Source: Eledone cirrhosa (taxonomy: Eukaryota). From it: a stretch of 64,000 nucleotides of DNA. Under the pieces are notes generated by a model, which was given only the letters and a program-made list of their open reading frames with translations, was not told the DNA's origin and ran no database searches. Below, piece after piece: positions 377-64,000 of the stretch; the first letter of the stretch is position 1, and each line of letters starts with the position of its first letter. Position numbers and translations under genes: made by a program. Location: assembly GCA_964016885.1 (NCBI GenBank), contig OZ024743.1:320602001-320666000 (forward strand). Reading direction: 5' to 3'.

Positions 377-576
377 CTTTATGTATGTTCCATCGTATAT
401 ACAGCCACAGTGTGATGGATGTACACATTCTGTACCACTAAGCACATATCCCTGTATGCAGATGCACCCATCAGTAGAATAGTCAGATAATGCAGGTGTT
501 TTGTTGGCACAAGTCGGTTGGTTGGCTTGAATTTTGAATTTGTATATCATATTTTTGCTTTTTGAGCAATCCAAAG
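377..576 (-). CDS. Exon: TIL domain (SLDCSKSKNMIYKFKIQANQPTCANK...CICIQGYVLSGTECVHPSHCGCIYDGTYIK)
   Basis: Acceptor ttcag at 577-581, donor gtgagt at 371-376; 200 nt, phase 1 to 0; TIL Cys pattern. Confidence 0.9.
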
Positions 577-1000
577 CTGAATTTAAAAAAAAACATGTTG
601 ATAAAAGCGGATGACATGCAAGTGCAAATAAAGCGAAGGATAAGAAAGTGCAAATAAAGGAGAAGGCAGTAAAATACACTAAAGAAACACTATTGGTATC
701 AATCATAGGGATGATCGTCTTTTCTGGAATTTAATTTGACGCCTGTAATATCAATCTTTGAAGAAGAAATCTGAAAATATTGGATTGCTTGGGGGAAAGT
801 TGTAGATAAATCATGTTGAAATTTTAGTGTAAAGAGGAATGAGAACAATTCAAAATATTCGAATTCCCGCGGCAGGTCTAGATAAACAATGCTGACATGT
901 CAGTTCATAAATGGATGGGAAAACAATCAGAAAGAAAGAAACAGATAGAGAAAAGATGAAACAAGGGAAAAAATAGAAACATTTCAAAATATCTACTTAC

Positions 1001-1275
1001 AACATCCTAAAACCTTTCTCCAGTTAATTATGACATCAACTTCTTCACATTTCCGAATGAAAGCTTCAAAAGATCGGCATTTAACACCTTTGAGTGTTTT
1101 AGATACATCTTTGTATGCACAAACATCAATCTTGCAAGATTCATAAAAATGTTTTGCTACTGCGACGCCTAATTTTTTCACACATTTTCCGAAAAGAGCA
1201 TTAGTGTTTATCATATAGTTACAAATCTTGGTTACACTAGCAGAACATGTAGGATAAGTATCATTGACCATGCAT
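1001..1275 (-). CDS. Exon: C8 domain (CMVNDTYPTCSASVTKIC...FYESCKIDVCAY...CRSFEAFIRKCEEVDVIINWRKVLGC)
   Basis: Acceptor ctctag, donor gtaagt; 275 nt, phase 2 to 1; C8 motif ending W-R-x4-C. Confidence 0.9.
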
Positions 1276-1575
1276 CTAGAGTCAAAATAAAAGAAAACAT
1301 TTATTAACGTACAATGATGTTTCAAAGAGGTAATTCATGACAACCAATCCTAACATTATAATGATTACATTCATAACAAATATATTATAAACTTAAAAGA
1401 TATCCGAATGTCGTTAATGTTGTCTTGTCTATATTCTTTCCATTAAAGACAGAACTAAATCTAAATAGAGTAACACGATATTAAAATTGACTTTAATGAT
1501 TTGGTACAAAAGAAGCTTTCTTTATATGAAATGAGAAAACGTTAAGATGCAAAGAAACAAGGTCTTGAATATAAA

Positions 1576-2626
1576 TCTGTATATATATAAAATTAAGTAT
1601 GTGTGTGTGTGTGTCTGTGTGTCTGTGTATTACCTATAGGGGCCTACATCTTACGACCGATTTTCATGAAACTATACAGGCTCATAGATTAGTCATCGGG
1701 GAAATGTTTTCCATATATCAGCGTATCGTTTTTTTTTTATTCCCGGATCATTCTGCATATAAAAATCGATAGGGGGGGGGGGTCACCTATTTTTAGGTAT
1801 CGAAAAATAAGATTTTTGGCTCTAGCTTCCACATTTTGCCACTGATTTCGCTCAAATTTTAAAGAAAAACAGAATTTATCATTGCACATCCTGTAATGGC
1901 TTTATACTTTGCATTTGTTTTTCAGTGACGGCGTGGCGGCCGCTTAAATATTTAAAAATACCACTTTTAGACTCAAATTTCCACTATTTTGGCTCTAGCT
2001 CCCACATTAACCAACCTACTTTGTTCAACATTTTACTCTACGCTAGATCTGATTATTTCACGTCTTAAAGTGGCTTTACATTTCGGATTTGTTGTTCATG
2101 AACGGCGTGGCAGCCGCTTAAATATTCGAAAATACTACCTTTTCGCTCAAATTTCCGCCTTTTGGGCTCTAGCTCCCACATTTTCCAACCGATTTTGTTC
2201 AAATTCGAAACTTCGGCTCCACCTCACATATAAATCAATTTATTTGGTTCAACTTTTATACTGCAATAGAACCTATCATTAGCTCCCACATTCTTCAACC
2301 GATTTCGTTCAAATTCGAAACCTCGCCTCCACTTCACACATGAATCAATTTATTTGGTTCAACTTTTATACTACGATAGAACCTATCATTGCTCATCTTA
2401 TAGTAGCTTTATATTTTTAGTTCAGGGACGGCGTGGCAACCGTTTAATTCTTCAAAATACGATGTTTTCCACCTCCCACATATTCCATACGATTTCACTC
2501 AACATTTCGCCTTTTGCTACACCTTACGACCGATTTTCAAGAAACTCGCAGTCGTTAAGATCAACACCTTTTCATCAAAGCAGATATTATTTTACCTACC
2601 CAGGCAATGCTTGGTACTGCTGCTAG
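1576..2626 (+). mobile_element. Non-autonomous Helitron with internal ~170-bp tandem repeats
   Basis: 5' TC start (TCTGTATATATATAAAA) after A1575; 3' hairpin acccaggc-aat-gcttggt then CTAG followed by T; no TSD; internal tttggctctagctcccaca...cggcgtggc repeats near 1815, 1990, 2160 and 2280. Confidence 0.75.
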
Positions 2627-2957: not shown

Positions 2958-3265
2958 GATTTCATTGGTTTATTACTATCATCGGGAACTTCATAGCTTT
3001 GACCAATGAGAGCGTATTTATTTCTTCTTCCTGATACATTATCTCCTGTCTTTGTACGCCAGTCATCTTTTTTACCATTGCAGTCTCCACAAATTCCTGT
3101 TAATTTCCCCCTGTAAAGACTTGGTACTTTGACAATGGAACGGTGGTTACCATCAAATTTCACTTGAAGACCGAACATTGTGGTAGCCGTAACCCAGCCA
3201 GCAGAATAATGTACTGTGAATCCCATGTAGTTCTCCAATGGCATTTCTAATAATTCATTGTCAAC
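2958..3265 (-). CDS. Exon: VWD domain, C-terminal half (VDNELLEMPL...FGLQVKFDGNHRSIVKVPSLYRGKLTGICGDCNG...)
   Basis: Acceptor cttaag, donor gttagt; 308 nt, phase 0 to 2; same length as the paralogous exon 58046-58353. Confidence 0.92.
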
Positions 3266-4044: not shown

Positions 4045-4295
4045 CGAAATCTTGTGTTTTGGTAATAAGCGGAGAGTTACACCATTTAATTTGATATCCA
4101 AAAAGCGAGTGTAGGAAACTTTCTTCGTTTTGCCACGATATTCGTTTTTCACTTCTACATGGAATGTAGGCAAACCAAATCCAGCTTTGGTTGATGCAAG
4201 TGTATATTTACATGCTCCCATGAAATGAATCGTTTGGCCATCAAATGTTCTATAATGTGGATCACCTGATGCTCGACATATACAGTCAGAAATAA
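4045..4295 (-). CDS. Exon: VWD domain, N-terminal half (ISDCICRASGDPHYRTFDGQTIHFMGACKY...)
   Basis: Acceptor tttgtag, donor gtaagt; 251 nt, phase 1 to 0; GDPH motif. Confidence 0.93.
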
Positions 4296-4639: not shown

Positions 4640-5330
4640 GTATGGGATGTCTTCAAGGGCATGAAATTTCGAAATTAGCTATAAATAAACAAAATTATTA
4701 GATAGGTTAAAAGGAGGTAACTATCATATAAATATTACCAAATGTAGGGAATTTATTCTAAGTTAGTAATTGAAAGAAATCAAATTCATTGAAAGTCAAA
4801 TTATTTAGTAATTCAAAGAAAATATATTCCTTGAAATACAAATTAGTTAGTCTCGTCTATACCATTATCTCAGGACGAATTTCTTTTCGAGTGGACAGCA
4901 ACTGAAGCAATCAAGGCGTATATTTAAGCAGTGTTTCTCCGAAGCCAATTATGGGGGTATATTCCACTTTTCCGAGTTACAAAGCCAGCAAAATTTCGTC
5001 CAATTATTATAGGGGGTAGACTTTTCTAATATACTCCATTTAATGGGAAAAGATGTACTGTTATTTTTAAGGGTCCATGCATGGTTTGCGAGCTGACTGG
5101 CATGTTGTTGTCAGGATGTCCGAAGGTTGTTTCCTGGTCCAGTTATCAGCTTTTGAATAGAGATAAGACCAGGCTTCAGTTTGGTGGTTCTGGTTAGTGG
5201 AGGTCCAATCTGTTTGATATATCACCACTGGAATGTTGCACTGTTGGTCTAGTGGGCAGGTCTCTGGTTTTCTGAATCAAATAATTTGTTTATTTATAGC
5301 TAATTTTAAAATTACCTCGCCTTGAAGATG
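4640..5330 (-). mobile_element. Degraded Penelope-like element 3' end (GIY-YIG endonuclease remnant) with short inverted ends
   Basis: Minus-strand fragments KPETCPLDQQCNIPVVIYQ, EKSTPYNNWTKFCWLCNSEK and CLNIRLDCFSCCPLEKKF parallel the better-preserved copy at 10350-10950; inverted repeat ~4655-4700 vs ~5280-5328. Confidence 0.65.
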
Positions 5331-5538: not shown

Positions 5539-5556
5539 TTGGTTGTGGGGGTGGTG
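5539..5556 (-). CDS. Predicted 18-nt microexon encoding the linker (A)PPPQP(I)
   Basis: Long T-rich tract plus ccctattaag acceptor, gtaagt donor; 18 nt, phase 1 to 1; fits between the EGF exon at 14418 and the VWD exon at 4295. Confidence 0.75.
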
Positions 5557-6184: not shown

Positions 6185-7580
6185 TTATTTACTTATTTAT
6201 CTATTTACTTCTTTACTTCTTTTACTCTACTTCTTCATCACCCACTTTTTCCCGAGAGGGTCGTAGGGTCAGAGTCCTCAAACACTCCTTCTAGCTAGTC
6301 CTGTCAGAAGCTACCGTCTCCAACTGATCCGGCTGGATCCCCAAGCGTGACCAGCCAAGCTCATGGATGTTATCTAATCATCTTAATCGGGATCTACCCC
6401 TGGGTTTCTGCCGGTTGGTTTTGTCCGTAAAGTATGTCCAGCGATTCTTACCTGAGACATTCTAACCACATGCCCACAGTATCGGAGCTGTGATCTCTAC
6501 ATTCGGAGAATGAGCGGCTCTACATAGAATGAGCCTCAAATCCCCGTTACTCTAAATACCCATAGGAGGAATTCTATTTCTGCCACTTATATTCGCGATC
6601 GTATTCTTCGGTCATTACACAAGATACATGACCATATGTAAGTGTTGGCACGAAAGACTAATTGAAGATAGCGAGTTTGGCTTTTACGCATATCTCCCTT
6701 CTGAATGCTGCAGGTGGCGGATTACTACTCCAGCTTTTGCAATTCTTGCATTTAATTCAGCCTCCTGCCTTCCATCACTCGTGAACACGGCCCCGAGATA
6801 CTTGAACTTCTCTACCTGCTTCAGTGAAACTCCACTCATATGTAGCGTGCAGTGTGCAGGCTTCCTTGAGTGGACGAGTGTCTCAGCTTTTGCAGCACTG
6901 ATTTTCATTACAGCCATGCAGCACTTGGCATCAAACCTATTATGTCGAACAGCTGCTGTCATGTGTGGGACACATCCAGTTGTCAGCTGAGTCCATTGTG
7001 AGGATCACCCCGCCGCCTTCATTTAAGAACGAAGGAGAGACGGTTTCCCTCTGTCTGGTGGCTATGGCGAGAGAGGTAATATGGTGGACGAGGTTAAAAG
7101 GACTGAGGGCAAACACCTTTCTCTCCGGACAACAACTTATTCCCTTCTTTAAGTATCCTTCAGAAGGAAGGTGAGATGAGTAAGTCGAAGATCTGTCGAT
7201 TTATGTAGCACCATGTCGGCTTCAAATTCAATGCGACCCATTTTACACATGCCAGACACGATACCACTTCCAACCCGACTGCACATACAATCCTGTTTAT
7301 GTAAATAATTAACAGGAGATTCCGATTCCCACATTGAATAGTTTCCAAAATCTGAACACTAATACTCGGGAATTCATATAGAGACATCAAGGCAGCAAGA
7401 AGCTGACCATCAATCCCATACTCCTGCACACACTTCCATAGCAGGTCCCGTGGAATGTGATCATATGTCTTCCGAAGTTCGATAACACAAGAATATAATT
7501 CTTGGCAATACTCCCACGATGTGTGAATATTTGGTCGGCTATGCTGCGTCCGGGGAGAAAACCACACTGTTCATCAGCTA
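6185..7580 (-). mobile_element. RTE-clade LINE 3' part (RT and C-terminus, simple-repeat tail), interrupted by an opposite-strand Tx1-like fragment at ~6965-7175
   Basis: VSLKQVEKFKYLGAVFTSDGRQEAELNARIAKAG and ELRKTYDHIPRDLLWKCVQEYGIDGQLL; A/G-rich tail (element sense) at 6185-6240. Confidence 0.85.
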
Positions 7581-7594
7581 GATTGGACTCGAGT

Positions 7595-8095
7595 TAAGAG
7601 AGGGGCTGAGCTGTCAAGTGATTACCATCTTGTTATCTGCAACTTGAGTACCTAAAGCCAAAGAAGCCCAGAAAACTGGCAGTTCCAGAGCGATCTCCTG
7701 GATAGAACGGGAAGCATTGGTGGAAAAGGAAATGAAGGCCAGTTATGCAGATCCAATTGCATCCAAATTCAGAGATTGTTCAGCACAGAAGTTTCTGCTT
7801 CAGCTGTTAAATCCTGCAGGCGAAAGAGGCTTGGTCTTGCGCCGATTGGCAGGAAGACTTCTTGGTTCAATGAAGAGGTTCAACATGCCATCCGAGCAAA
7901 AAAGGAGGTTTACAAAGCTTGGCTTGGCAATAAGCCCTCCTTTCACTTGCGGTATAAGCAGGCACGATAAATTGCAGCAGAGACTGTAAAAGCGTCCAAA
8001 GTTAAGATATGTGTTGACTTTGGGGTTAGGCTTGAATCCGACTTCAGATAAGCAAAAAAGTGTTCGCCATTCACCGACTTCGTAATAAGAAGTAT
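7595..8095 (+). mobile_element. RTE-like LINE fragment (endonuclease-RT linker region), degraded
   Basis: RKTSWFNEEVQHAIRAKKEVYKAWL motif; homologous to 61340-61870. Confidence 0.7.
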
Positions 8096-9074: not shown

Positions 9075-12000
9075 ATAGGAACGAGTTGGACCCCGACGGC
9101 TGAGCTCAAGCCGTTTCGACGGCTAATTCTGGACTAAATGAAAATTTTTATCCTGGTATATGCTTCTCAGGGGGTAATTCCATATATGGTAAAAGTGATT
9201 GTCACAAGGATTGGTCAAAAGTTTGTTGTTGAGACACATAATTCTATCATGGGAATTTGTGGGGGGAATGGGTAGCTGAACCTGCCAGTAGAAGAAAGAA
9301 GGAGAGGGAGTGTAGGAAACCCAGTCGTGCGTTGATTGTGCCAACTACAGCAGAGCAGGAGGTCAAGCAAGTATACTAGGGAGGGTGGGGGGAGTCGAAA
9401 CAATAAGTAAATCAATATGGAGTAAATATATAGAAGAATACCAAGAATGTTAAAAATATAAAAAAAAAATTCTGGTTACTATTCCCTAACGACAGTCATC
9501 AAGTCTCTCTCTGGTACTGCTAAACTATAGAAAAGTTTACTAGGTGGGATGGAATTGTAATGAGACCATCTTAAGAGTTAGTAGTAATCAACCGAGTATA
9601 TCTTACGGTGACAGGTCAACAAGTGGGGGGCCAAAATACTAAAGAAACTACCACGAAATAATAATTCAGAGCCCCGAAACTAATACGAAATAAATGTTTC
9701 TACCCTAGGTACAAGGCCAGCAACCACCCAGTGCAAAAAATAAACTAATACGAAATAATAATTAAGAATCCCGAAAAGAAATACTATTACTATCTCTAAG
9801 GGTGCCGCTACGATACAAAAATTATATTGCAAACTACATAAATGCTCTACGAGGTATATGAAAAATTTGATACGGAAAATAATTTAGAATCCCCACCCCC
9901 CACCCCCCAAAAAAATACTGATATACGAGAAATTAAAGCAGAGATACCACTAAGAAATGTAGAAAGCACGTAAATGGGGCAGCCATCGGATAAGAAAGCA
10001 AGTATCTGGTGTCTATCACATCTGCTATAAAAAGCGGAGTCGGCCAATTCTATCATAGAATAGGGGTGGGGGTGGGGGTACTGAGGCGTCAAAGGACCGA
10101 GGGGCTGCCTCGGGTGGGCGAGAAAATCAAAAGGATGACGACAAAGAAGGAGGACTTGGGAGGAAGGACTAGGAAGGGATGGGGGGAAGAAGGAAATATA
10201 GAGGAAACGATAAAAGTTATAAAAGAAGCTCTTACGTCTACCTTTGCAAGTAGGGGTTACCCATTACAAAATCAGCAAGTGGGGTGTTACAGCTCCTGTC
10301 TACCCCCCCCCCACCCCCACCCCGGGTCATTATGGGGTTTGAGGGCGAGGTAAGTCCTACGCAATCTGTGTTTGCATGCAGTTACCAGTTCGTCTTTCTT
10401 GTTTAGGAGTTGGTCCGTCGAAAACAGCATTTGTAAAGTTTACTCCGAGCATAAATTGCACGGACGGCGTCCTCCCGTGTAAGAGTTGGCTCTGGACAGT
10501 AAGCTCCAAGTGAGATCATAGGTAATATTGTTATCGTTGAGGTCCCAGATGTGGCCCGAAAGTGTGGTGGCGTGACGCCGGGCCGGGTTTCGGAAAGTAT
10601 GTCTGTGTTGGTATAGCCGGGACTTGAAGTCACATGCGGTTAATGCTATATAAGCTTTGTTGGAGGTGTCCGTTCTCACGTTGCACTGGTAGATCACATT
10701 ACGATCTCTGCATCTGTTGTCGAGGGGGCAAATGGATCCATCAGGATAGTTGCACCTCCTGGTCGGCTCTCCACTGCTATTTAAGTTATTTCTTCCATAG
10801 GGGTTGAGTTTTTTGTTTTTAGAGGAGACGATGTTTTGTGCAAAGTTTGGTGTGGTGCTGTAGGAGAGTTCGATGGTATTTTTGTTGATTATGTTGTGGT
10901 AGCGGTGTTGTAGTGGGAAGTGTTTTTCGATGAGCCTAAAGAAGATTTGTATCTCTGAACTGGTAGGTCTAGAGATCGCTACCCGCCTGTTTTTGCGTCA
11001 ATCGATCACCAATACTTTATTATAACAAGTCAATTCTTCTTTCTTGATTTTCGTCGTCCTTTTCATTTTCTCGCTCACTCGAGGCAGCCCCTCGCTCCTT
11101 TGCAGCCTCAGTACCCTCACCCCCATCACCTATTCTATGATAGAATTGGCCGACTCCGCTTTTTATAGCAGATGTGACAGACCCCAGATACTTGCTTTCT
11201 TATCCGATGGCTGCCCCATTTCCGTGCTTTCTACATTTCTTAGTGGTATCTCTGCTTTAATTTCTCGTATATCAGTATTTTTGGGGTGGTGGTGGGGTGG
11301 GGTGGGGGGATTCTGAATTATTTTCCGTATCAAATTTTTCATATACATCGTACTAGTATTTATGTAGTTTGCAATAGAATTTTTGTATCGTAGCGGCACC
11401 TTTAGAGATAGTATTAGTATTCATTTTCGGGATTCTGAATTATTATCTTGTATTAGTTTATTTTTTGCACTGGGTGGTTGCTGGCCTTGTGCGTAGGGTA
11501 GAAACATTTATTTCGTATTAGTTTCGGGACTCTGAATTATTATTTCGTGGTAGTTTCTTTAGTATTTTGGCCCCCTCCCCCCACACTTGTTGATCTGTCA
11601 CCGTAAGATATACTCGGTTGATTACTACTAACTCTTAAGATGGTCTCATTACAATTCCGTCCCACCTAGTAAACTTTTCTATAGTTTAGCAGTACCAGTG
11701 AGCGACTTGATGACTGTCGTTAGGGAATAGTAACCAGAAATTCTTTTTTTTATATTTTTAAGATTCTTGGTATTCTTCTATATATTTACTCCATATTGAT
11801 TTACTTATTGTTTCGACTTCCCCCCTATCCCTAGTATACTTGCTTGACCTCCTGCCCTGCTGTAGTTGGCACTATCAACGCACGACTGGGTTTCTTCCAC
11901 TCCCTCTCCTTCTTTCTTCTACTGGCAGGTTCAGCTACCCATTCCCCCCACACATTCCCATGATAGAATTATGTGTCTCAACAACAAACTTTTGACCAAT

Positions 12001-12140
12001 CTTTGTGACAATCACTTTTACCATATATGGAATTACCCCCTGAGAAGCTCGGCTATTCATATACCGGGATAAACATTATCATTTAGTCCAGAATTAGCCG
12101 TCGAAACGGCTTGAGCTCAGCCGTCGGGGTCCTACTCGTT

Positions 12141-12144
<4 letters not shown>
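9075..12144 (-). mobile_element. 5'-truncated Penelope-like element (GIY-YIG C-terminus at ~10350-10950) flanked by ~1-kb inverted pseudo-LTRs (~9075-10085 and ~11103-12144), next to (TA)n tracts
   Basis: FFRLIEKHFPLQHRYHNIINKNTIELSYS, CNYPDGSICPLDNRC..VIYQC, FKSRLYQHRHTF, CNLCSE and LLNKKDELVTACKH motifs; the two arms are reverse complements. Confidence 0.85.
12035..12130 (+). ncRNA. Type I hammerhead-like motif with non-canonical CUGAGAA core (broken inverted copy at 9090-9175)
   Basis: acccc-CTGAGAA-(cggcta...tagccg)-GAAA-cggc[ttgagctca]gccg-TC-ggggt; stems I and III pair, C3:A8 mismatch. Confidence 0.55.
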
Positions 12145-12194
<50 letters not shown>

Positions 12195-12202
<8 letters not shown>

Positions 12203-13025
12203 TAATTTAATATATCTACTAACATAAGCCCACAGATGTACGCTAATGCCAGCAAATACACAGGTTATGTCATAGTACCTAGGTGGTTCAATGCAGGAGA
12301 ATGCAGAACAATAATATATAAGACGTAAAATAAGAAAATTTCTTAAAAAAATTTTTTTTTTTTAAATTAACTTACTTACTTAAATTTTCACTCCAACTAA
12401 TTAGTTTCTGCAATGGGATAAAGACAGTTACGTAATGAACTGTTGAGAATTTCATTGCGTCATCAGGGAGGTCATTCTCAGCCGAGTCTCCAGGCGATGC
12501 GCGGACACTGGGGACTCATATAAAAATATATATTATTGTTCTGCATTCTCCTGCATTGAACCACCTAGGTACTATGACATAACCTGTGTATTTGCTGGCA
12601 TTAGCGTACATCTGTGCGCTTATGTTAGTAGATATATTAAATTATCTATATTTATCTCCAAATCACTGATTTGACGAGAAAACCTGCCAAAACCACTTCT
12701 AAAAAATTTTTTTTGGGGGGTGTTAGTAGGCGTCTGTCATCTTACCATCCCATTCCTACTAACTAGCCTCTGTGTCACGTGATTGATTCTTTAGAATCGG
12801 CCATATGATCAGTGGCAGTGAGAATTTTCAGTGGCTGGAATCCAGTCCTCGATAGCTGTTCCAGTTGCCGAATTATTATTATTTTTATATGAGTCCCCAG
12901 TGTCCGCGCATCGCCTGGAGACTCGGCTGAGAATGACCTCCCTGATGACGCAATGAAATTCTCAACAGTCCATTACGTAACTGTCTTTAAAAATTTTTTT
13001 TAAGAAATTTTCTTATTTTACGTCT
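12195..13025. mobile_element. Interleaved inverted repeats (A-B-A'...B'), a Penelope-like pseudo-LTR remnant between (TA)n tracts
   Basis: ~12200-12320 is the reverse complement of ~12528-12650; ~12321-12525 is the reverse complement of ~12885-13025 apart from an internal gap; carries a hammerhead motif. Confidence 0.7.
12391..12470 (-). ncRNA. Minimal type I hammerhead ribozyme motif
   Basis: Minus strand: ctcc-CTGATGA-cgcaatg...cattgca-GAAA-ctaattag-TT-ggag; palindromic stem III typical of Penelope-like element hammerheads. Confidence 0.65.
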
Positions 13026-13547: not shown

Positions 13548-14213
<666 letters not shown>

Positions 14214-14235
14214 TTACACAAATATGACCCTCCCC

Positions 14236-14281
<46 letters not shown>

Positions 14282-14417: not shown

Positions 14418-14528
14418 CAACAGAACAATCTTTCCCTGAGAATCCACCCTTACATAAGCAAGAGTATGTTTTGCCGCTGTTTTTACAAACTCCTCCATTT
14501 TGGCATGGTTTCGTGTCACAGGGTTCAA
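14418..14528 (-). CDS. Exon: EGF-like domain (VEPCDTKPCQNGGVCKNSGKTYSCLCKGGFSGKDCSV)
   Basis: Acceptor tttgcag, donor gtaaga; 111 nt, phase 1 to 1; six Cys. Confidence 0.92.
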
Positions 14529-15314: not shown

Positions 15315-15428
15315 CAACAGTACAATCTGTCCCCGACAATACAGCCATATAATAGCAACTGTAAATTTTGACGTTGTTGGTACAAACACCTCGATTTTGG
15401 CATGGTTTCTTGCCACACGGATCAACAA
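15315..15428 (-). pseudogene. EGF pseudoexon (DPCGKKPCQNRGVCTNNVKIYSCYYMAVLSGTDCTV)
   Basis: Paralogue of exon 14418-14528 with the same upstream intron flank; Cys5 changed to Tyr and donor GT changed to AT (ataagt). Confidence 0.8.
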
Positions 15429-16062: not shown

Positions 16063-16690
16063 GGAATGTATAGAAGTGACACACGAGTTGATATACATAA
16101 AAAATAGTCATAAAGGAAAATGAACAGTAGAAAATACTAAAAGGATTCTCTCTCAGAATAACATCATAACATTTAATAACAAAATAGGGATTTCCGCATT
16201 TAATTGTACCGGTTTCAGCATATATGCTTTCTCAACGAGGGAGGGTCATGGGATAGGTGTGGTAGTAATACCAGGGCTATGGTAAGGAAGGGGAAGACGG
16301 AGAAGGGGTGGATGAAGCAGAAGGGGACGACAGGAAGGTGTAGTAGTAATAGTATCACAATTAATAACGGTAATGGGAGCTGTCCGTGGGGTTGACTTAA
16401 AAGATTGAGTGACCTTAGAGTTGACTGAGGAACTAATTGTTTCTAAAAATATATATATTTGTATTTCTGTCTGTAATGCTGTCATTCTTAAATTGACCTG
16501 CAGTGTGAATGTTTCAAAGAGATCTTCCTTAATTTGTCCAAGGTGCTAATTTGAAAGTGTGCCAGCTGCAATTTCGTTTGAAATAGATGCATTTAGAGGG
16601 GATTCGGATTTAGCGATAAAATGTGATTCCTTGATAATGCGCTGGGTGTAGAAAGCGTTGTCTTTAAATGTGTAGAGGGGTAAATTCTGC
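16060..16690 (-). mobile_element. Penelope-like 3' remnant with a degenerate UUGAGAA hammerhead motif at ~16203-16240
   Basis: Minus-strand QRIIKESHFIAKSESPLN resembles a GIY-YIG C-terminus; TTGAGAA-agc[atatat]gct-GAAA-ccgg-TA. Confidence 0.55.
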
Positions 16691-17352
16691 TATGTCAAAA
16701 ACCTTATTAAAAGAAACACTATTGCTACTGTACTACACCAGTCCCTTACCTTCATGTCTTCCTATCACATAGGTTATCTCGATAAGCAATACAATATCTC
16801 ATATTGATCGAATTAAACGAATCTAGAATTCGTTTGCAGCTTAGCTATATTGAAACGTTCATTGAGCCAAGATTAGAAGAACCATGTAAATTATCCTAGT
16901 GAGACGTAGAACAAAATATTGACAAAACAATAAAGAAAATTAAATGTTGTCGTGAACATGCACAGTGTCCCTGTATTGATTATTTGCGGGTTTCTGTAGA
17001 GGGGGCTATTATCATAGGCTAGACGAACGTGTGTAATTTTTCCCTTGATTCTGAAATGTTCACGTCTGTTTTACTTGGGCAAGGAGTTCAGTTAACTATT
17101 TTCCTGTTTCCTCCATGGCAAGCCATCGGGGAAAGAGCATAAGACTAAAATATAAGACTACGATGATCTCCATATAACAATACATACATTATAATACATT
17201 TTAATAATAATAGTATTGATATTATTGCATGTAATAGTCTTAGTACCTGTTACAAGGATTTTAACTCTAAACAGCTCAAATATATTTAAAACACAAAGAC
17301 TAAGACATATGAAACAACAATGTGCTGATGATATGCCGCAACATTTCAGCCG

Positions 17353-19210
17353 CAACATTTAACAGCTGAATTAGAAACTACCGAGCTAAACAGTCACTAC
17401 TCTGTTTCAACGACATCGCTTTACTCAGTTCTCTGAATTTTTATGCAATAGTATCCGCATAACTGTTCCTTATTTTCTTATCCGTCAACGCTTTCCACTT
17501 AATTCTGTAGACGACTTAAAGCTGCCAGATCTGTGGGCTCTCTTGACATTAGTTAGTCTCAAGTTACAAATAACTAGATGGTGATCAATTAACAGTTCAG
17601 CCTCTCTCTTAATATGTACAACCAGCAGAGAATCGAAAAGATCAGAGTCAATAACAACATAATTTTATTTCTATCTCTGATTCCTTTCATACCATGTATA
17701 TTTATGGATGAATGATTGAAGAAGGTGTTCATATTAAGGAGCCAAATACTAGAAAAGAAGTCTAGTAAGGCATAATTAGAATAATTAATTAATCAGAGCT
17801 ATTTATCAAATTAAAAATACGAGTAAATAATAGAGAAAAATATACCTAATTGCATCGCTGGCCGGGCAGCCTCAGTATCGATTATGTGTTTATAATATGC
17901 CGTAACCCTGTAGGGATTACTGAACTAAATATTTTACATCTTTTATGTTCTTTACATCTGATGACGCCGCCAATTGTGTTACGTAATGGTTTGATCAAAC
18001 TAAAATGCGAGGAAATATTAGACAAAAATATACGTATTTTTTCTTCAAAATCCTGACTGCAGTTTCGCCAAATTACTTTGCTGCATAGATGCACTATAGA
18101 AGTGAATGATTACTGAAAAGCAATTAGGCGAAACTGCAGTCTGGACTGTGAAGAAAAATAGGTATATTTTTCTATATTATTTACTCGCATTTTTAGTTTG
18201 ATAAATAGCTCTGATTAATTGATTATTTTAACTCTTTCGGTCATTGAGCAAAACTGGTCAACGCCGGAGCCGTATACACATATACTAGTGCATCTTTCTG
18301 TGCATCTCATTACTATTAGTATATATATGTGTGTGTGTATGTGTGCGCGTGTGTATGCATTTAAAAAATTATATTTTCGTAACGTTGTATGAGAAATATT
18401 TCACACGCCAAAATATAATACAAAATACACTTAGTCAATTTTCAGGAACACTTGTTTCTAGAAGTAAAGCTGTAATGAATCTGAAGGTGCCTGGCCATCA
18501 ACATCGTTTGTGCAGTCGAGAAAATATTAAAGGTATGGCATTTAACTAATTACAGGATCGGAAGACTACTTAGTTTGCATATCATCATCATTTATTCATT
18601 GATTAATTGAATACGTTAAGAGTTCAACGAAGATTATAATTGATTAACCATAATTAAAACCCATGTTAATACTTCAAGGATTATGAGAAGTTCTCTTCTA
18701 GTACCCCATATCCTTCATACGGCTGTACATCCTAATTTCGGGTTATGCAAAGATATGAAGGGAAAATTTATAGATTTTCAAGTAAGTGCTCAAAATATCG
18801 ATACATAATTTCGTACATACCTCCACAAGTTTTTTCAACCAATTTCTTTTCGATTGATTTTAGAACATCAAAGTTGTCGACTGAAAATACATATTCCCTG
18901 CTTGGCGAACTACCAATCGTACTTAACTCAGCTTTTCCAATACCTTTGCCGATTCCAATAGCAAAAACTATCGTGTTCTCTTTTCGTAATTTCCTTGCTG
19001 CCTCAGCTGTTAAGGTTGCATTTTTAGATTTTCCATCAGTTATAACGATAGCAATATTCGGGGCATTTTGTCTATCTCCATTGCTTGCCTTAAAAGCACT
19101 AGTTCTCAAGTAATTAAGAACCTTGTGCGTGTAAGTAGATCCTCTCTTGTAAGGTATTCTATCGATAGCTTTTATTATGTCGTTCTTCGTATAATATTTC
19201 TTCAGGTAAA
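17353..19210. repeat. Segmental duplication copy 1 (VWA exon plus downstream intron), near-identical to 62613-64000
   Basis: Direct sequence match with offset 44790 at the exon; a ~470-bp block (~17605-18077) is absent from the second copy. Confidence 0.92.
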
Positions 19211-19387
19211 ACACATTTGTGGGATTGTAACTGAATTTTACGACTCCAACACGAATGCTGTCGCGACCGATGTCAAAAGAACTCACTATGTCTTTAACAA
19301 AATTCCTCATTTTTTTAAAGTTGTGGAGTTTAACACTACCGGATTCATCCAGCACGAACACAACATCAGCAACTGCGTTATTACAAG
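18821..19387 (-). CDS. Exon: VWA domain (SCNNAVADVVFVLDESGSV...TYTHKVL...IAIVITDGKS...VEKTCG)
   Basis: Acceptor ttttag, donor gtatgt; 567 nt, phase 1 to 1; intact MIDAS DxSxS, T and TDG. Confidence 0.93.
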
Positions 19388-19684
19388 CTAAAAGTAAAAC
19401 ATAAAATATTGCCAAGACATGAAAAAAAACACGATAGTAAAGTTTACATCATTTAGAAAGTAAGATTATAAGTAGCTTTATATTAATATATATGATTGTA
19501 TATATTTTATTGTAATTCATACTATCGTAGAAGATTACGGCAATGTCTATTAAGCAATTATTCTTAAGTATCATTATGATTATAGGGATATTACTGCTGT
19601 AAGTGTGGATGGGTGCTATGGTGACATCAGTAGAACGTCGGACAAAATGCCTTATATGTTATGTTTTCAAATTCTGCTGAGGTC

Positions 19685-20058
19685 GATTCGGTTGTAAACC
19701 TTGCATTTTCAGATTTTCCCTTGTATATAATGATTGCAATATTCAGGACACTTAGCATATCTACGAATCATGGATTAAAATATTTTCTCAAGTAACCAAG
19801 AACCTTGTGTGTGTAGGCACTTCCAATTCGTATGTTATTCTACCGATAACCCTCCTAATATCTCATTGACTTAATATTTATGTTGGTTAAACTTCACTTT
19901 GGTTTGAAAACTCAATGATAGGGCTCCGACTCTAACGCTGTTTTGATTAATATTAAAGATGTTTCCTATCGTCTTTACGAATGACTTTCCTTTCTCTAAT
20001 TTTATCATAATTTCAGTCGTCCAGCACTAATATAATATCAGCTATTGCGTTATCACTA
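19685..20058 (-). pseudogene. VWA pseudoexon with stops and frameshifts
   Basis: Fragments DNAIADIILVLDD, FNINQNSVRVGA, GSAYTHKVLGYLR and NIAIIIYKGKSENA align in order to the live VWA exon. Confidence 0.8.
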
Positions 20059-21899: not shown

Positions 21900-22460
21900 T
21901 ATCTCCTCGAGGCGATCTACTGCAACTGGCTACAGAACGGGAGAATTTCCTGTTCTGTGACCAAGGGCGTAGTCTCGCTAGTGAGGAAGGACGAGAATAA
22001 GGGGGATGAAATAAGTAATTTCAGGCCCATAACTCTGCTAAATGCGGAGTTAAAGATTTTGGCCAAGGTGTTAGCAAAGAGGTTGGCGATTGTCGTGGGC
22101 AACCTGGTGGGAGATGCGCAGACATGCGCTATCCCGTCCAGGTCCATTCACGACAACCTCCACCTCATGCCATACATCATAAAGAGGGTAGTGAATGAAC
22201 CCGGCTTTGGTGGTGCCCTGATCAACTTAGATGAATCTAAGGCGTTCGATTGGGTCGACCATGGTTAACTGGATGCGGTGCTAGCGGCGGCAGGTTTCGG
22301 ACCCGTTTTCAGAGGCTAGATCACTGCCATGCACAGCAGCCGCATCTGCTGTAGAGTCAAGGTGAATGGGTACCTCTCGAAGCCGTTCGAAATGACGCAG
22401 TCCATCCGACAAGGGTGCCCGCTCTCCTCCCTTCTGTATGTATTGGCCTTGATTCTGAAA
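21900..22460 (+). mobile_element. L1/Tx1-clade reverse transcriptase fragment (pseudogenised)
   Basis: NFRPITLLNAELKILAKVLAKRL, INLDESKAFDWVDH and RQGCPLS motifs; stop codon after VDHG. Confidence 0.85.
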
Positions 22461-22874
22461 CATTCACGGCTGTCTCCCTTGGGCAAGGAGTTGAGTGAAC
22501 TATTTTCCTGTTTCCTCCATGGCAAGCCATCGAGGAAAGAGAATAACACTAAAATATAAGCATACGGTGATCTCCATATAACAAAATCTTCCCTATGATA
22601 CATTTTAATAATAACAGTATTGATATTATTGTATATAATTGTCTGAGTACCTGTGATACATACATATATTTACTTCTGTGAACTTACTACGTCTTTATAC
22701 GTGTCTGAAAAATAATATGATTTTATATTTCTGTCCATTTTATCCTCCATATTTTCTCAACATTGTCTGGACTGTCGAGTGATAACATGACTTTATACAC
22801 ATATGATGATGTATAGCTGATATTTTATATATCAAGGAGAATAATATTGATATTAAAATGTAATATTTTCTCAC

Positions 22875-52620: not shown

Positions 52621-53129
52621 TTATGATATAATTATTATAGATCTCCTTCCTAAAGTATATATTTTCACTAAAAAGAGAGGCTATAAATATCATGTCGAAC
52701 TATTGCTACTGTACTACACCAGCCCTTTCATTCATGCCTTCCCATCACACAGGTTACCTGAAAATCCATAATTTTCGATAACCAATACAATATCTCATAT
52801 TGATCGAATTAAAGGAAGCTACAATTATCCAGCAGCTCAGCAACTATTAAACGTTGATTGTGCCAAGATTACAAGGATTATACAAATTAACCTACAAAGA
52901 CTGAGAAGAGAATATTGACAAAACATCTGACAAAACGTCAGGCTTCTGGCAACTAATTCAAAACTCAATGCGTATTTTGCTCGTATGTTCCTTATACACA
53001 CGTATTCGACTTAATTTTACATATTGATGAAGTAGGCCAATTTTCATGGATTATATTTATGCATCCTTTAAGATAGTTTGTCTCATTATTAGTCTGGAGA
53101 ATACCCATGCAATTTTCTAACTTGCCTCA

Positions 53130-54274: not shown

Positions 54275-54449
54275 CGACACAAACTTGTTTCATATTCATA
54301 AATCCCGCTTTGCAGAAACACTTGCGAAATCCACCTTTCAGTACACACTGCGAATATTTAGGACATCCTGATGGTTGATTCAAAACTTTATTACCAGGGA
54401 GGCATGTGATTTTTGCGGAACAATTGTCTAAAATGAAACTTGTATTACT
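54275..54449 (-). CDS. Exon: TILa plus EGF-like module (SNTSFILDNCSAKITCLPGNKVLNQPSGCPKYSQCVLKGGFRKCFCKAGFMNMKQVCV)
   Basis: Acceptor ttttccag, donor gtaaaa; 175 nt, phase 0 to 1. Confidence 0.85.
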
Positions 54450-55694: not shown

Positions 55695-55888
55695 TTTCAT
55701 GTAAATACCCTTGTAAGTACAACCACAAGCGTCTTTAGAAATACATTCAGTTCCACTAAGAATAAATTCCTTCTTGCACACACAGGCTTCTGTAAATTTT
55801 GTAATACGGGGTACAACCTTATTCGTGCATGTTGGTTGATGTATAGAAGTGGAGAATTTATATTCCATGTTTTGAAGACACTTCAACT
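55695..55888 (-). CDS. Exon: TIL domain (ELKCLQNMEYKFSTSIHQPTCTNK...CVCKKEFILSGTECISKDACGCTYKGIYMK)
   Basis: Acceptor ttttgcag, donor gtaagt; 194 nt, phase 1 to 0. Confidence 0.9.
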
Positions 55889-56707: not shown

Positions 56708-56979
56708 CACATTTAAGTGGTGTCCTCCAGTTAACTAAACCACCAAAGACTTCACATCGACGTGCAAATGCTTCAAGTGAACGACATGTAGCATCAGCCT
56801 TCAAGACAGAGACATTGCTATATGCACACACATCTATTTTGCAGTTTTCGTAATACGTTTGTGCTTCCAAAAGTATCTTATTCACACAGTTCTTGAAGAT
56901 ACCTTTCTTGTTGATAATTTCGTCACAAGCCTTTGTCACATGAGGTTTACATGTATCACTTACATCAGTGGTCTTACAC
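56708..56979 (-). CDS. Exon: C8 domain (CKTTDVSDTCKPHVTKAC...YYENCKIDVCAY...CRSLEAFARRCEVFGGLVNWRTPLKC)
   Basis: Acceptor tttacag, donor gtaagt; 272 nt, phase 2 to 1. Confidence 0.92.
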
Positions 56980-58045: not shown

Positions 58046-58353
58046 TGTTTCTGGGGTTTGTCACTATCATCAGGAACTTCATAGCTTTCACCAATGCGAG
58101 AATATTTGTTGCGATCTTTAGATACATCAACTCCAGCCTTTGTACGCCAGTCGTCTTTATTTCCATTGCAGTCACCACATATTCCAGTAAGTTGATTTCT
58201 GTACATACCGGGAACATTGACAATCACACGATGGTTACCATCAAACTTCACTATAACACCGAATGCTGTTCTGGCTACAACCCATCCAGCAGCATAACGC
58301 ACTGTGAATCCCAAAACATTCTGCAGTGGCATTTCATAGAACTTGCCGTTAAT
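58046..58353 (-). CDS. Exon: VWD domain, C-terminal half (INGKFYEMPLQNVLGF...TGICGDCNGNKDDW...)
   Basis: Acceptor ttcacag, donor gtaaga; 308 nt, phase 0 to 2. Confidence 0.92.
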
Positions 58354-60358: not shown

Positions 60359-60609
60359 GGTGATTTTTCGTTTCGGTAGCAAACGCAGCGTGTTTGAACC
60401 AAGTTTTAGATCGACAAGGCGTGTGTATGCAACTCTCGTATTTCTTCCACGATGTTCATTTTTCACTTCTACGCTAAACGCAGGTAATTTACTCGTTTTA
60501 ACTGCCGCTGTGAGTGTGTATTTGCATGTTCCCATGAAATGAATCATTTGTCCGTCATGTGTTTTGTAATGAGGATCTCCGGATGCTTCACATACGCAAT
60601 TGCGAACAC
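60359..60609 (-). CDS. Exon: VWD domain, N-terminal half (GVRNCVCEASGDPHYKTHDGQMIHFMGTCKY...)
   Basis: Acceptor atttcag, donor gtatga; 251 nt, phase 1 to 0; GDPH motif. Confidence 0.93.
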
Positions 60610-61334
60610 CTGAAATACAATAAACAAAATTAGACTGAACAATCATTTTCAATTATTTATTCTTTATATCGTAAAGTGTTAAATCTACTAAATTAATTAA
60701 ACTTCTCCAAATTATAATTCGTTGGATACATAGATAATATTTGTTTATAAAATCAGAAAATTTGCCTTAATCTATCATTTTTATGCCGAAAATTTCTGAG
60801 AGAATTTCAAATTATGAAACAAAAAAAAGACCCTTAGTTTAATAATTTCCTCCCCTTTTCCTCGATGTGCAGAATAATTTCGACAACGTTGCAGATCCCA
60901 TCCAGTGCAGTATGTATTGTTTACACTTATCCTTCGAATACGGCATCAAACTATACCTTTATACATCAGATGTCATGCTAATGGCTAGTTATGCTTGTGA
61001 GACGTGACAGAATCTCTTTGGAACGCAGACATCTTCCATAGACATTACCTTAGAACCATACTTAGAATTGATTGGCTTCACATCACGAATGAAGAGGCGG
61101 GCTCAAACATGTATAAAATTCCATTACGCAGGGGCGGTGGAAGTTCCTTAACTACGTACTACACATGCAAACGAAGTAATCAGTATATGTTTCTCTCGAG
61201 TTAAAGCCAAAAGACGGAAAGGCAAACGCATCAAACCCTATTTAAAAGCAGTGTAGAAGGGTAATCAGGGACAGAGATCAATAACTAATTTTGTTATTGT
61301 CTCTGATCTCTTTGGTGCTGGATATTCGTGTAAA

Positions 61335-62245
61335 GAGAGAGGGCTGAGCTGTCAACAGATCACCATCTAGTTATCTACAATTTCAAACTAACTATTGCCA
61401 AGGAAGTCCACAAAACTGGCAGGTCCAAGGTGAATTATAGGCTGCATTAGGAAGCATTGATGGATAAGGAAATCAGGACCAGATATGTAGATACTATAGC
61501 ATCCAAATTCAGAAAATTATTTGAGCAAACTGAGGACGTTGAGACGGAGTGGAAATTGTTCAGTGCAGCAGTTTGTTTCATCTGTAAAATAACGCGGGAG
61601 CAAGAGGCCCGGTGTGGAGCCAGATGATAGGAGGACACATTCTTTCACTGAAGAGGTCAAAGATGCTAGCCAAGCAACGAAGAGAGCTTTAGAATGATTA
61701 CTTGTAAATAGGTCCTTGCACTTGCGGTACAAGCATGCACGAATAATCGCTGTAGAGACAGTAAAGGCGTCTAAATTTAAAAACATGGGAGGACTTTGGG
61801 ATTAAGCTGACATACGAAATATAATAAGCAAATAAAGTGTTCTGGTACACCATCCACCAACTTCGTAATAAGAAGCTCTTCCCTCACACCTGCTATCAAG
61901 AACGCGTCTGGGGTCTCCTCTCTTCATGTAGAGCCGCTACTTCTCCGAACTGAGAGATTATAGCTGCGATACTATGGGCATGTGGTTAGAATGTCTCAGG
62001 AAAGAATCGCTGGAGAGATTTTACGGGCAAAACCAACCGGCAGGAGATCCAGGGGTAGATTCCGAACAAGATGGTTGGATAACAGCCATGAGCTTGGCTG
62101 GTCTCGTTTGAGGATCCAGCGGGATCAGTTGGAGACGGTTGCTTCTTACAGGAACCACTGGGAGGTATGTGTGAGGACTCTGCCCCCACGAACCTATCAG
62201 GAATAAGTGGGCAAAGAAAAAAAGGAAGAAAAAGATGAAAATATT
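61335..62245 (+). mobile_element. Internally deleted RTE LINE (linker fragment fused to the 3' end with purine-rich tail); a further inverted fragment at ~62330-62610
   Basis: AKPTGRRSRGRFRTRWLD C-terminal motif; homology to 7595-8095 and to the reverse complement of 6240-6530. Confidence 0.8.
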
Positions 62246-63610
62246 TCAATTGTATCCGGGTTTAGAAGATTAGCAAATTGTGTTCTGAACCCCACATGGA
62301 TGTATCTCTTTGAAGAGAGGAGGACTGAAATCACGTTTCTGATAGCAGGTTTCGAATAGGAATTTGTATTACGAAGTCGGTGGATGGTCTGCCAAAATAA
62401 TTTATCTGCTATCTGACGTCTTCCCTTGTCTTAACTTTGGACGCCATTATTGTCTCTGTTGCGACATTTTGCGCCTGATTTACCGCAAGTGATAAATGGG
62501 GAAACTATTTACAAGTCAATCTTTGTAGGTCTCCTTCTTTAGTCAGATGGCATATTTGACCCCTTTATTGGACCAATGGACCACCCAGTGTCACGCCAAA
62601 CCAATTTCGGCTACAACATTTAACAGCTGAATTAGAAACTACCGAGCTAAACAGTCACTACTCTGTTTCAACGCCATCGCTTTACTCAGTTCTCTGAATT
62701 TGTATGCAATAGTATCCGCATAACTGTTCCTTATTTTCTTATCCGTCAACGCTTCCCACTTAATTCCGTAGACGTCTTAACACTGCCAGATCTGTGGGCT
62801 CTCTTGACATTAGTTAGTCTCAAGTTACAAATAACTAGATGGTGATCAATTAACAATTCAGCCTCTCTTGCTGCATAGATGCACGAGAGAAGTGAATGAT
62901 TACTGAAAAGCAATTTGGCGAAACTGCAGTCTGGACTGTGAATAAAAATAGGTATATTTTTCTCTATTATTTACTCGCATTTTTAGTTTGATAAATAGCT
63001 CTGATTAATTGATTATTTTAACTCTTTCGGTCATTGAGCAAAACTAGTCAACGCCGGAGCCGTATACACATATACTAGTGCATCTTTCTGTGCAACTCAT
63101 TACTATTAGTATATATATGTGTGTGTGTATGTGTGCGCGTGTGTATGCATTTAAAAAATTATATTTTCGTAACGTTGTATGAGAAATATTTCACACGCCA
63201 AAATATAATACAAAATACACTTAGTCAATTTTCAGGAACACTTGTTTCTAGAAGTAAAGCTGTAATGAATCTGAAGGTGCCTGGCCATCAACATCGTTTG
63301 TGCAGTCGAGAAAATATTAAAGGTATGGCATTTAACTAATTACAGGATCGGAAGACCACTTAGTTTGCATATCATCATCATTTATTCATTGATTAATTGA
63401 ATACGTTAAGAGTTCAACGAAGACTATAATTGATTAACCATAATTAAAACCCATGTTAATACTTCAAGGATTATGAGAAGTTCTCTTCTAGTACCCCATA
63501 TCCTTCATACGGCTGTACATCCTAATTTCGGGTTATGCAAAGATATGAAGGGAACATTTATAGATTTTCAAGTAAGTGCTCAAAATATCGATACATAATG
63601 TCGTACATAC

Positions 63611-64000
63611 CTCCACAAGTTTTTTCAACCAATTTCTTTTCGATTGATTTTAGAACATCAAAGTTGTCGACTGAAAATACATATTCACTGCTTGGCGAGC
63701 TACCAATCGTATTTAACTCAGCTTTTCCAATACCTTTGCCGATTCCAATAGCAAAAACTATCGTGTTCTCTTTTCGTAATTTCCTTGCTGCCTCAGCTGT
63801 TAAGGTTGCATTTTTAGATTTTCCATCAGTTATAACGATAGCAATATTCGGGGCATTTTGTCTATCTCCATTGCTTGCCTTAAAAGCACTAGTTCTCAAG
63901 TAATTAAGAACCTTGTGCGTGTAAGTAGATCCTCTCTTGTAAGGTATTCTATCGATAGCTTTTATTATGTCGTTCTTCGTATAATATTTCTTCAGGTAAA
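63611..64000 (-). CDS. Exon: VWA domain (5' part beyond the window end), near-identical to 18821-19387
   Basis: Donor gtatgt at 63605-63610; phase 1 joins the VWD exon at 60609; two visible substitutions in the ORF-track overlap (LNT/LST, SSE/SRE). Confidence 0.92.

Follow-up and report, generated by a model that had tools for sequence, protein, structure and literature searches.

Exon chain and domain order

The window, a 64,000-nt stretch of Eledone cirrhosa DNA, carries a minus-strand chain of 24 exons that, when joined by coordinates, stays in frame over 4,539 nt and encodes 1,513 aa with no stop codon. All 23 acceptors are AG, all 24 donors are GT and exon phases are continuous along the chain; the gene extends past both ends of the window, which holds its middle. 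The exon chain and Pfam give the domain order VWA-VWD-C8-TIL-TILa-(EGF)11-VWA-EGF-Pro linker-VWD-C8-TIL. An earlier note on this DNA had proposed this module order, span and exon chain, and all modules were recovered as it stated by Pfam, tblastn and in-frame joining. The closest homologue, O. sinensis “von Willebrand factor-like isoform X3” (P0096, 1,663 aa), is collinear module by module except for the EGF array, and it also begins with an apparent signal peptide and has PAN domain(s) at its C-terminus.

VWA exon 1 (63611-64000; Pfam VWA 63612-63998, E 1.6e-27), whose 5' part lies beyond the window, ends in a phase-1 donor and is followed by the first of two VWDs, each split over two exons (Pfam E 2e-12 and 3.5e-10 for the first, 1e-12 and 6.5e-10 for the second). 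VWD1 exon 1 (60359-60609) has GDPH codons at 60569-60580 and FCGBP as its top PDB match (E 1e-73), and exon 2 (58046-58353) has a CGDC motif and matches P0096 at 78%. C8 exon 1 (56708-56979, Pfam C8 E 5.7e-13), TIL exon 1 (55695-55888, with seven Cys in a reduced pattern) and a TILa exon whose second half is EGF-like (54275-54449; TILa E 2.2e-5 and EGF_3 E 0.0016, both under cut-off) come next; TIL scores across the gene are 3.2e-4 (below the curated cut-off) and 1.3e-5. The array of 11 EGF exons (22875-51567) consists of 111-nt exons in phase 1-1 that start at 51567, 48732, 45729, 42739, 39749, 36759, 33702, 30577, 27521, 24426 and 22985. All 11 were recovered by tblastn, and Pfam EGF matched both of the two array exons scanned, as well as the single EGF exon further along. 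A length of 114 nt for these exons was rejected because it leaves GT donors at only 13 of 24 sites, against 24 of 24 for 111 nt.

Downstream of the array are a complete VWA exon 2 (18821-19387; Pfam VWA 18822-19385, E 2e-50) with one Cys at each end, the single EGF exon (14418-14528, Pfam EGF E 8.9e-8), which matches the P0096 EGF at residues 1041-1077, and a Pro-rich microexon of 18 nt (5539-5556, phase 1-1). VWD2 exon 1 (4045-4295, GDPH codons 4255-4266), VWD2 exon 2 (2958-3265, the second half of the domain), C8 exon 2 (1001-1275, Pfam C8 E 1.3e-9) and TIL exon 2 (377-576) end the chain inside the window; from the homologues, TILa and PAN are expected 3' of this, beyond position 1. The microexon is the sole candidate above the splice-score thresholds in the 23,445 nt of five introns, with none on the antisense strand, and a short Pro-rich linker occupies the equivalent junction in P0096. 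Two other candidates for the linker were rejected, one at 5070-5276, which looks like a retroelement remnant with what we take to be a GIY-YIG motif, and one at 16250-16350, which is of low complexity and misplaced relative to the single EGF. An EGF-like exon at 15315-15428 was left out of the model because its donor is dead. Repeats of about 3 kb around the EGF exons, near-identical VWA exons and two decayed exons are features beyond those the earlier note described.

The apparent mosaic might instead be two adjacent paralogues, or result from a mis-join where the VWA blocks are nearly the same: single-unit paralogues exist, some with an EGF array before the VWA (P0083, P0144), and the O. vulgaris counterpart is annotated as two models (P0097, P0098). 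However, TILa lies just 2.7 kb from the first EGF exon and the last EGF exon 3.5 kb from VWA2, with continuous phases and no PAN, terminal or signal exon there by tblastn, which found no PAN or signal-peptide exon anywhere in the window (no match below E 0.5). The TIL-VWA-EGF-VWD junction occurs within one chain in P0096, P0129 and P0262, and 14 substitutions plus an insertion of ~470 nt distinguish one VWA block from the other, which argues against a mis-join. We regard such a split as most improbable, and the single gene of the earlier note is supported by the collinear two-unit homologues P0096 and P0129.

The EGF array and the paired VWA exons

The EGF exons are embedded in near-identical genomic repeats of about 3 kb (exon plus intron). 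The array introns are 96.3-100% identical; nine measure 2.7-3.0 kb and have a LINE-like fragment in common, and the tenth, of 1.33 kb, lacks it. One pair of adjacent repeat introns is 100% identical in aligned columns, and the count of 11 may therefore be off. Judged from the repeats themselves, the array arose recently by amplification of a unit of ~3 kb that comprises exon and intron; this unit would have multiplied in tandem after the LINE-like insertion, presumably by unequal crossing-over. The multiplied exon, in eleven near-identical copies that encode five distinct peptide variants, is new relative to the annotated Octopus protein. The three live EGF exons scanned score 15-17.6 bits for EGF_CA against a cut-off of 27, and so are not of the calcium-binding type. 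By analogy with octovafibrin, the eleven modules may form an extensible spacer from the first D assembly to the second VWA.

It is possible, though we doubt it, that the array is a near-neutral by-product of unequal crossing-over, mostly skipped or tolerated and without a mechanical role. All 11 exons are symmetric, hence skippable in principle, conservation is barely higher in exons (98.3%) than in their introns (97.9%), seven of eight variable exon sites fall at codon position 1 or 2, and the dead exons close by point to fast turnover. On the other hand, none of the 11 copies has lost its frame, any of its six Cys or a splice site, in an array too young for a strong test, and independent near-identical arrays occur elsewhere in the family (21 EGF in P0164, 5-6 VWA in P0097/P0098). 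Near-neutrality of the array would leave the preferred reading of the remaining protein intact.

The two VWA exons lie 44.8 kb from each other and share 98.8% identity. The block at 18078-19210 differs from that at 62868-64000 at 14 positions in 1,133 nt (exon plus 743 nt of intron), and similarity resumes at 17343-17607 versus 62604-62868 (95.8%) beyond the insertion. Inside the window the VWAs are 98% identical, in P0096 A1/A2 match A3 at 81-84%, and between the window and P0096 identity is 55-57%; the VWAs thus cluster by gene, unlike the VWD assemblies, which cluster by position. A quick tree places the window VWAs in an octopus VWA clade with support of 96. Directly upstream of live VWA2 is a decayed VWA pseudo-exon (19684-20055; tblastn E 2e-11), truncated and with stops and frameshifts, that has 64% nucleotide identity to VWA2 over 404 nt; it is 46.5% identical to VWA2 versus 42-45.5% to the P0096 copies, and falls in an open fork of the tree. 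The decayed EGF pseudo-exon at 15315-15428 (78% nucleotide identity to the live exon 14418-14528) has a donor changed from GT to AT, one Cys lost and no Pfam match, and it too adjoins a live exon. The VWA exons would have been homogenised recently, either through gene conversion or because a duplicate replaced an older exon, with the dead VWA as a leftover copy.

VWA2 carries D-x-S-x-S and the later Thr and Asp, which confirms the intact MIDAS reported for it, and the VWA domains would hold partner proteins by their acidic residues through a metal ion at such a site. The second-best PDB match of VWA2 is PTMP1; an AlphaFold model from the single sequence is uninformative (mean pLDDT 41).

D assemblies and the octopus family

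GDPH is present in both VWDs, as the earlier note had it, and follows strand 1 together with the tethering Cys and its partner in the CGxC region, as in FCGBP; the position equivalent to FCGBP Q4094 is Met, likewise the residue in several FCGBP domains. A pattern of 28 Cys per full assembly is common to the window, P0096 and P0076. On the FCGBP precedent, both sites are predicted to self-nick, leaving the chains disulfide-linked. Autocleavage fragments of FCGBP remain disulfide-linked (PMC8267560), and cleavage of this type raises the protease resistance of the domain (PMC10880436). “Self-processing”, the term used previously, should be taken to mean a nick. At least five VWDs of the family have lost GDPH, and nicking is therefore dispensable there. 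No GDPH-spanning peptide is among the rows listed from the O. vulgaris mucus table, a weak negative given incomplete detection.

Unit 1 of the window is 69.5% identical to unit 1 of P0096 and unit 2 to unit 2 65.4%, with cross-pairs at 56.6-58.8%. A careful tree of 19 D assemblies with AU tests recovers window D1 with P0096 D1 (99/95) and rejects a grouping of both window assemblies with each other (p-AU 2e-5). A clade of window D2, P0096 D2 and P0099 is not recovered, but not rejected either (p-AU 0.155), window D2 standing in an open fork with P0076. By these comparisons the two assemblies separated long ago and are position-matched with O. sinensis. Octopus VWDs form one clade (100/99, and 98 in a quick tree of 86 rows) that groups in the quick tree with lophotrochozoan FCGBP/zonadhesin-like proteins and at a great distance from VWF; FCGBP and the molluscan zonadhesin-like and IgGFc-binding protein-like proteins are the sister group in the VWD trees.

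Lineage specificity, as first suggested, holds in the form of an octopus-expanded family. The architecture called unusual is, apart from the EGF array, already annotated in P0096, which also has VWA and EGF joined to VWD-C8-TIL-TILa, both GDPH motifs and the Cys pattern, although it has a short Pro/Thr linker after TILa in place of the array. Window-P0096 identity is 65-70%, well short of the 86% at which O. sinensis and O. bimaculoides match, and P0096 may be either an orthologue or a paralogue of the window gene. The O. vulgaris models P0097/P0098 have five and six near-identical VWA copies instead of EGF amplification. P0096 and P0097/P0098 are automated annotations of uncharacterised proteins. 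The octopus paralogues LOC115209496 (P0076/P0037), LOC115209189 (P0083/P0082), LOC115229549 (P0144) and P0164 mostly have one D assembly, and with the two-unit P0129 they resemble the window in carrying VWA, (EGF)n and VWD-C8-TIL-TILa, most with a C-terminal PAN. Several differ in lacking GDPH, the P0129 VWA is degenerate and without a MIDAS, and the 21 EGFs of P0164 are near-identical. Several paralogues lie on the same chromosome-length contig as P0096 or P0097/P0098. VWA and VWD assemblies are combined in ten named Octopus proteins, in VWF and in a nemertean protein (Lineus), and in none of 27 named non-cephalopod mollusc VWD proteins; squid or cuttlefish relatives are absent among the named matches listed from searches limited to lengths of up to 2,000 or 2,911 aa. 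Indexed main texts yielded no description of an octopus VWA-EGF-VWD family (subscription papers being outside the scope), no paper linking cephalopod, GDPH and von Willebrand, and none mentioning six of the family's locus and accession identifiers.

There is no new chemistry here, every domain and the GDPH reaction being already known; the new part is evolutionary, namely array amplification and VWA homogenisation as against old VWD assemblies. One gene thus combines opposite modes, with ancient position-specific D assemblies and recently homogenised VWA and EGF exons. We tentatively suggest that octopuses may hold an undescribed cluster of “accordion” mucus or matrix genes, in which an old self-nicking D-assembly frame persists and symmetric VWA and EGF exons arise rapidly, are homogenised over tens of kilobases and disappear again. 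The amplified module would differ by gene, being EGF here (11 copies) and in a paralogue (21) and VWA in the O. vulgaris models (5-6). If so, the number of copies would adjust the valency of a metal-dependent gel cross-linker and how far it reaches, and might differ among individuals. Database entries mislabelled “VWF-like”, “zonadhesin-like” and “Notch homolog” come together here as one octopus family with a role testable in skin mucus or other secreted gels. These findings bear on the mechanics of cephalopod secretions and on biomaterial design.

Predicted role and comparison with known systems

The 24 exons probably belong to an octopus-type VWA/EGF/VWD gene, collinear with P0096, that encodes a secreted, cationic, self-nicking and disulfide-linked scaffold of skin mucus or a comparable extracellular gel. 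The likely role is that of a cationic, GDPH-nicked, disulfide-held mucus or matrix cross-linker. Secretion would depend on a signal peptide outside the window, and P0096 and P0164 start with hydrophobic leaders as read by eye. The product is basic (Lys 11.6%, pI 9.15), and its surfaces would bind anionic glycans. Its modules are Lys-rich as claimed, but not distinctively so, since P0096 (11.8%) and relatives from oyster (12.3%) and nemertean (11.5%) are alike.

Protein evidence comes from paralogues in the O. vulgaris skin mucus, whose proteome has VWD as its most enriched domain (PMC10138644). LOC115209496 (P0076) is represented there by at least eight spectra and at least six distinct peptides, from VWA, VWD, C8, TIL and PAN, the PAN peptide being shared with LOC115209495, and at least two further peptides match P0144/LOC115209190 (PMC10138644). 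Seven peptide strings of P0096 had no match among the table rows listed (PMC10138644), and the mucus evidence is therefore for paralogues only. Of the matrix, mucus or adhesive roles first suggested, those of a secreted protein of mucus or matrix are likely, and nothing found points to adhesion in particular.

The absence of P0096 peptides from the rows listed would also suit the same gene and chemistry in a reproductive secretion (oviducal cement, egg envelope or spermatophore coat). In O. maya, a ZAN-annotated transcript that may belong to this family is up-regulated in the oviducal gland when fertilisation takes place (PMC8976471), and octopus egg threads contain a protein with a 29-EGF array (PMC10336842). 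That protein, octovafibrin, is nonetheless C-type lectin-EGF29-C-type lectin, with von Willebrand domains unmentioned in that study (PMC10336842), and the family members with protein evidence come from skin mucus, which makes this alternative rather unlikely. A haemolymph or wound-sealing protein that aggregates haemocytes via its VWAs is suggested by the name of P0096 and by the combination of VWA with VWD-C8-TIL, as in VWF; haemocyanin is reported in the mucus samples, so haemolymph carry-over is possible. Yet the VWDs lie far from VWF and with lophotrochozoan FCGBP/zonadhesin-like proteins, the module order differs, and the even Cys count per assembly gives no indication of spare polymerisation cysteines, and we consider this role improbable.

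A mucus or matrix scaffold remains our preferred reading. Beyond the octopus proteins, parallels exist with FCGBP, the best structural-database match, and with the molluscan zonadhesin-like and IgGFc-binding protein-like proteins, which have tandem VWD-C8-TIL-TILa with GDPH in common with the window. Unlike FCGBP, P0096 has a VWA in place of the IgGFc N-terminal domain, and the window gene has only two assemblies, their run broken by EGF and VWA where that of FCGBP is uninterrupted. VWF, missing from the comparison of the earlier note, likewise interposes VWA domains among its D assemblies (14 vertebrate rows), and VWA interleaved with VWD-C8-TIL, found in Lineus too, is its layout. Its order is D1-D2-D'D3-A1-A2-A3-D4-C-CK, however, and it differs in module order and number and in its distant VWD lineage, while P0096 lacks VWC and a cystine-knot tail and has EGF and PAN. 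Zonadhesin consists of MAM domains, a mucin stretch, D domains and a transmembrane anchor, and has D assemblies and an EGF in common with the window. That the gene is not a zonadhesin orthologue is borne out, in that P0096 and the paralogues have VWA and no MAM and fall outside the rabbit zonadhesin clade.

Sea star Sfp1 is cut at GDPH. It is cleaved into four disulfide-linked subunits, mussel PTMP1 has two VWA domains, and mfp-2 and octovafibrin have EGF arrays (PMC12817120, PMC10336842). These are likenesses of parts only, none having the window order; in octovafibrin the array lies between C-type lectin domains (PMC10336842), whereas that of the window is flanked by TILa and VWA.

Structure of the gene in the window

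The minus strand of the window, in AT-rich animal DNA (36% GC) with many dinucleotide repeats, is predicted from sequence to be the middle part of one large spliced gene. Twenty-four exons were mapped on this strand, and their 4,539 nt, when joined, read through without a stop as 1,513 aa, with consensus splice sites throughout (AG acceptors 23 of 23, GT donors 24 of 24). Pfam searching detected VWA, VWD (two exons each), C8, TIL, TILa and EGF; the scores of TIL1 and TILa fall under the curated cut-offs, and of the eleven EGF exons of the array Pfam was run on two and tblastn recovered all eleven. Together with the in-frame join, this bears out the domain order proposed in an earlier note on this DNA. 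The spliced model also agrees with that note in carrying GDPH in both VWDs, in the intact MIDAS of the complete VWA (all five positions present by sequence), and in its Lys-richness (11.6%, with a pI of 9.15). The Pro linker corresponds to a microexon of 18 nt (5539-5556, minus strand), the sole candidate to pass the splice-score thresholds when 23,445 nt from five introns were scanned, with none on the antisense strand. The final array exon (22875) has T rather than G as its last base, making its donor weaker than the other ten.

Since single-unit paralogues exist and the O. vulgaris counterpart is annotated as two models, it had to be considered whether the window holds two genes. However, the gaps flanking the EGF array are just 2.7 and 3.5 kb, exon phase is continuous throughout the chain, no PAN or signal exon was found in the window, and the identical junction occurs within the single chains P0096, P0129 and P0262, all of which favours one gene over two.

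Relatives of the two VWD units

Searching with the second exon of the first VWD (VWD1) gave five matches among 39 candidates, of which the four named ones are all from Octopus. The top match is P0096 (O. sinensis “von Willebrand factor-like isoform X3”), whose modules can each be aligned with those of the window with no change of order. P0096 differs by a hydrophobic leader plus one more VWA at the front and TILa and PAN at the rear, beyond the part seen in the window, and by a short Pro/Thr linker at the site of the 11 EGFs. Judging from protein distances, the window gene may belong to an octopod that is further removed, or may be a paralogue.

In a scan of 347 sequences (346 fetched plus the window model), VWD was found in 236 and VWA together with VWD in 37, namely 10 named Octopus proteins, two Lineus isoforms, 14 vertebrate VWFs, 10 unnamed proteins and the window model. 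VWA was absent from all 27 named VWD proteins that one of the searches gave for bivalves, chitons and gastropods. A Lys-rich protein of the nemertean Lineus longissimus (P0177 and P0183) likewise joins VWA domains to a GDPH-bearing VWD-C8-TIL, along with a long stretch of Thr and Pro. Its VWAs fall outside the octopus VWA grouping, which suggests that the nemertean combination was assembled independently.

When 86 VWD domains, drawn from 36 selected proteins, were placed in a quick tree, the named octopus VWDs fell together with three unnamed rows in one clade of 17 rows (support 98). This clade lies within a lophotrochozoan group of FCGBP/zonadhesin-like proteins (97), far from VWF. In a more careful tree of 19 D assemblies (VWD-C8-TIL units), the octopus clade is supported at 100/99, and the first assemblies of the window and P0096 pair at 99/95. 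A clade of the window's own two assemblies, a grouping named after the quick tree had been seen, is rejected (p-AU 2e-5); for the second assembly, a clade with the second assembly of P0096 and with P0099 is neither recovered nor rejected in the same 19-assembly tree (p-AU 0.155).

Turnover of VWA and EGF exons

The two VWD-C8-TIL units of the window share only 55.7% protein identity, in contrast to the two VWA exons, which lie 44.8 kb apart and have 14 differences in 1,133 nt, 743 nt of intron included. As the VWA domains group by gene, opposite to the D assemblies, we infer an old, shared frame of two assemblies inside which each gene homogenises or replaces its VWA and EGF exons. As well as the likeness of the two VWA exons, the earlier note overlooked a decayed VWA exon immediately upstream of the complete one (18821-19387), a decayed EGF exon (donor GT to AT) immediately upstream of the single live EGF, and a tandem genomic repeat inside which the 11 EGF exons sit.

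Among themselves, nine array introns of 2.7-3.0 kb each show 96.3-100% identity, and all nine include a common fragment of ~900 nt, which matches a copy at 6273-7176 at ~94%. This fragment is missing from the tenth intron, which measures 1.33 kb. Because the nine near-identical introns carry the same fragment, expansion of the array postdates a recent mobile-element insertion. The open frame of the fragment has RT-like look-alikes, with RVT_1 in 16% of the members of one cluster, which is a lead only. By sequence comparison, fragments of this LINE-like family lie at 6273-7176, 7589-8092, 17343-17682 and 61263-62868, plus the nine copies in 24655-49864; the young, ~94% identical copies date the array expansion. 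Older similarities pair the intron before the single EGF with introns flanking the array (16718-16929 with 52699-52925, 77%; 17043-17250 with 22447-22654, 87.5%), and were left behind by an earlier duplication of an EGF exon, unless they are simply dispersed repeats.

Near-identical module arrays recur in the family, in O. vulgaris models with 5 and 6 VWAs (95-100%) and in the octopus paralogue P0164 with 21 EGFs (mean identity 89%), although these are automated models that may contain errors. The N-terminal 220-240 residues of the paralogues P0082 and P0083 are repeated and Cys-free and, from their likeness to off-frame EGF readings from tblastn, look like EGF exons read in the wrong frame; public models of such arrays are therefore error-prone.

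Elsewhere, a 1.1 kb inverted repeat (9075-10158 and 11031-12145, arms 92% identical) encloses a 185-aa minus-strand frame (10443-10997) with GIY-YIG look-alikes (score 0.95; GIY-YIG in 40% of one cluster) and no Pfam match. We take the whole element (9075-12145) to resemble a Penelope-like retroelement, and a more decayed piece seems present near 4950-5280. Short near-perfect inverted repeats in the large intron (12192-12989 and 13590-14279; 98-99% over 110-129 nt, 88% over 173 nt) are possibly MITE-like.

Predicted function and comparison with known systems

Among solved structures, VWD1 best matches FCGBP. In that protein every GDPH site is cut at an early stage, in the ER, after which one disulfide holds the pieces together (PMC8267560). 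GDPH cleavage increases protease resistance and requires the Asp and His (PMC10880436). Since the window protein retains the motif and cysteines as in FCGBP, it would be expected to be nicked at GDPH without fragment release. The complete VWA, of the collagen VI/PTMP1/integrin-I kind with its MIDAS intact, would bind partner proteins via a metal ion, and the EGF modules, not of the calcium-binding type by Pfam, would serve as a spacer.

In an O. vulgaris skin-mucus proteome table (PMC10138644), the paralogue LOC115209496 has at least eight spectra and at least six peptides, and LOC115209190 at least three spectra, two of these common to LOC115229549. Among the matches listed, none was found for seven peptide strings of P0096, and none contains GDPH. 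Besides the more likely role in mucus or matrix, the protein may have a reproductive one; a ZAN-annotated transcript, possibly of this family, is up-regulated at fertilisation in the oviducal gland of O. maya (PMC8976471).

The mosaic that the earlier note called unusual is thus real in the window, but its core order already stands in public annotation (P0096), and the domains, the GDPH chemistry and the combination of VWA with D assemblies are likewise known. Among the papers that our literature search listed, none was found to describe the octopus VWA-EGF-VWD family. What is new for this family is the insertion of 11 EGFs, the homogenisation of VWA exons across a long distance, and the presence of dead exons; intragenic concerted evolution is already known in other repetitive structural genes. 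The adhesive proteins treated in a review (PMC12817120) offer analogies only. In octopus egg threads, EGF arrays of such a kind can bear load (PMC10336842), although the egg-thread protein, octovafibrin, belongs to another family than the window protein.
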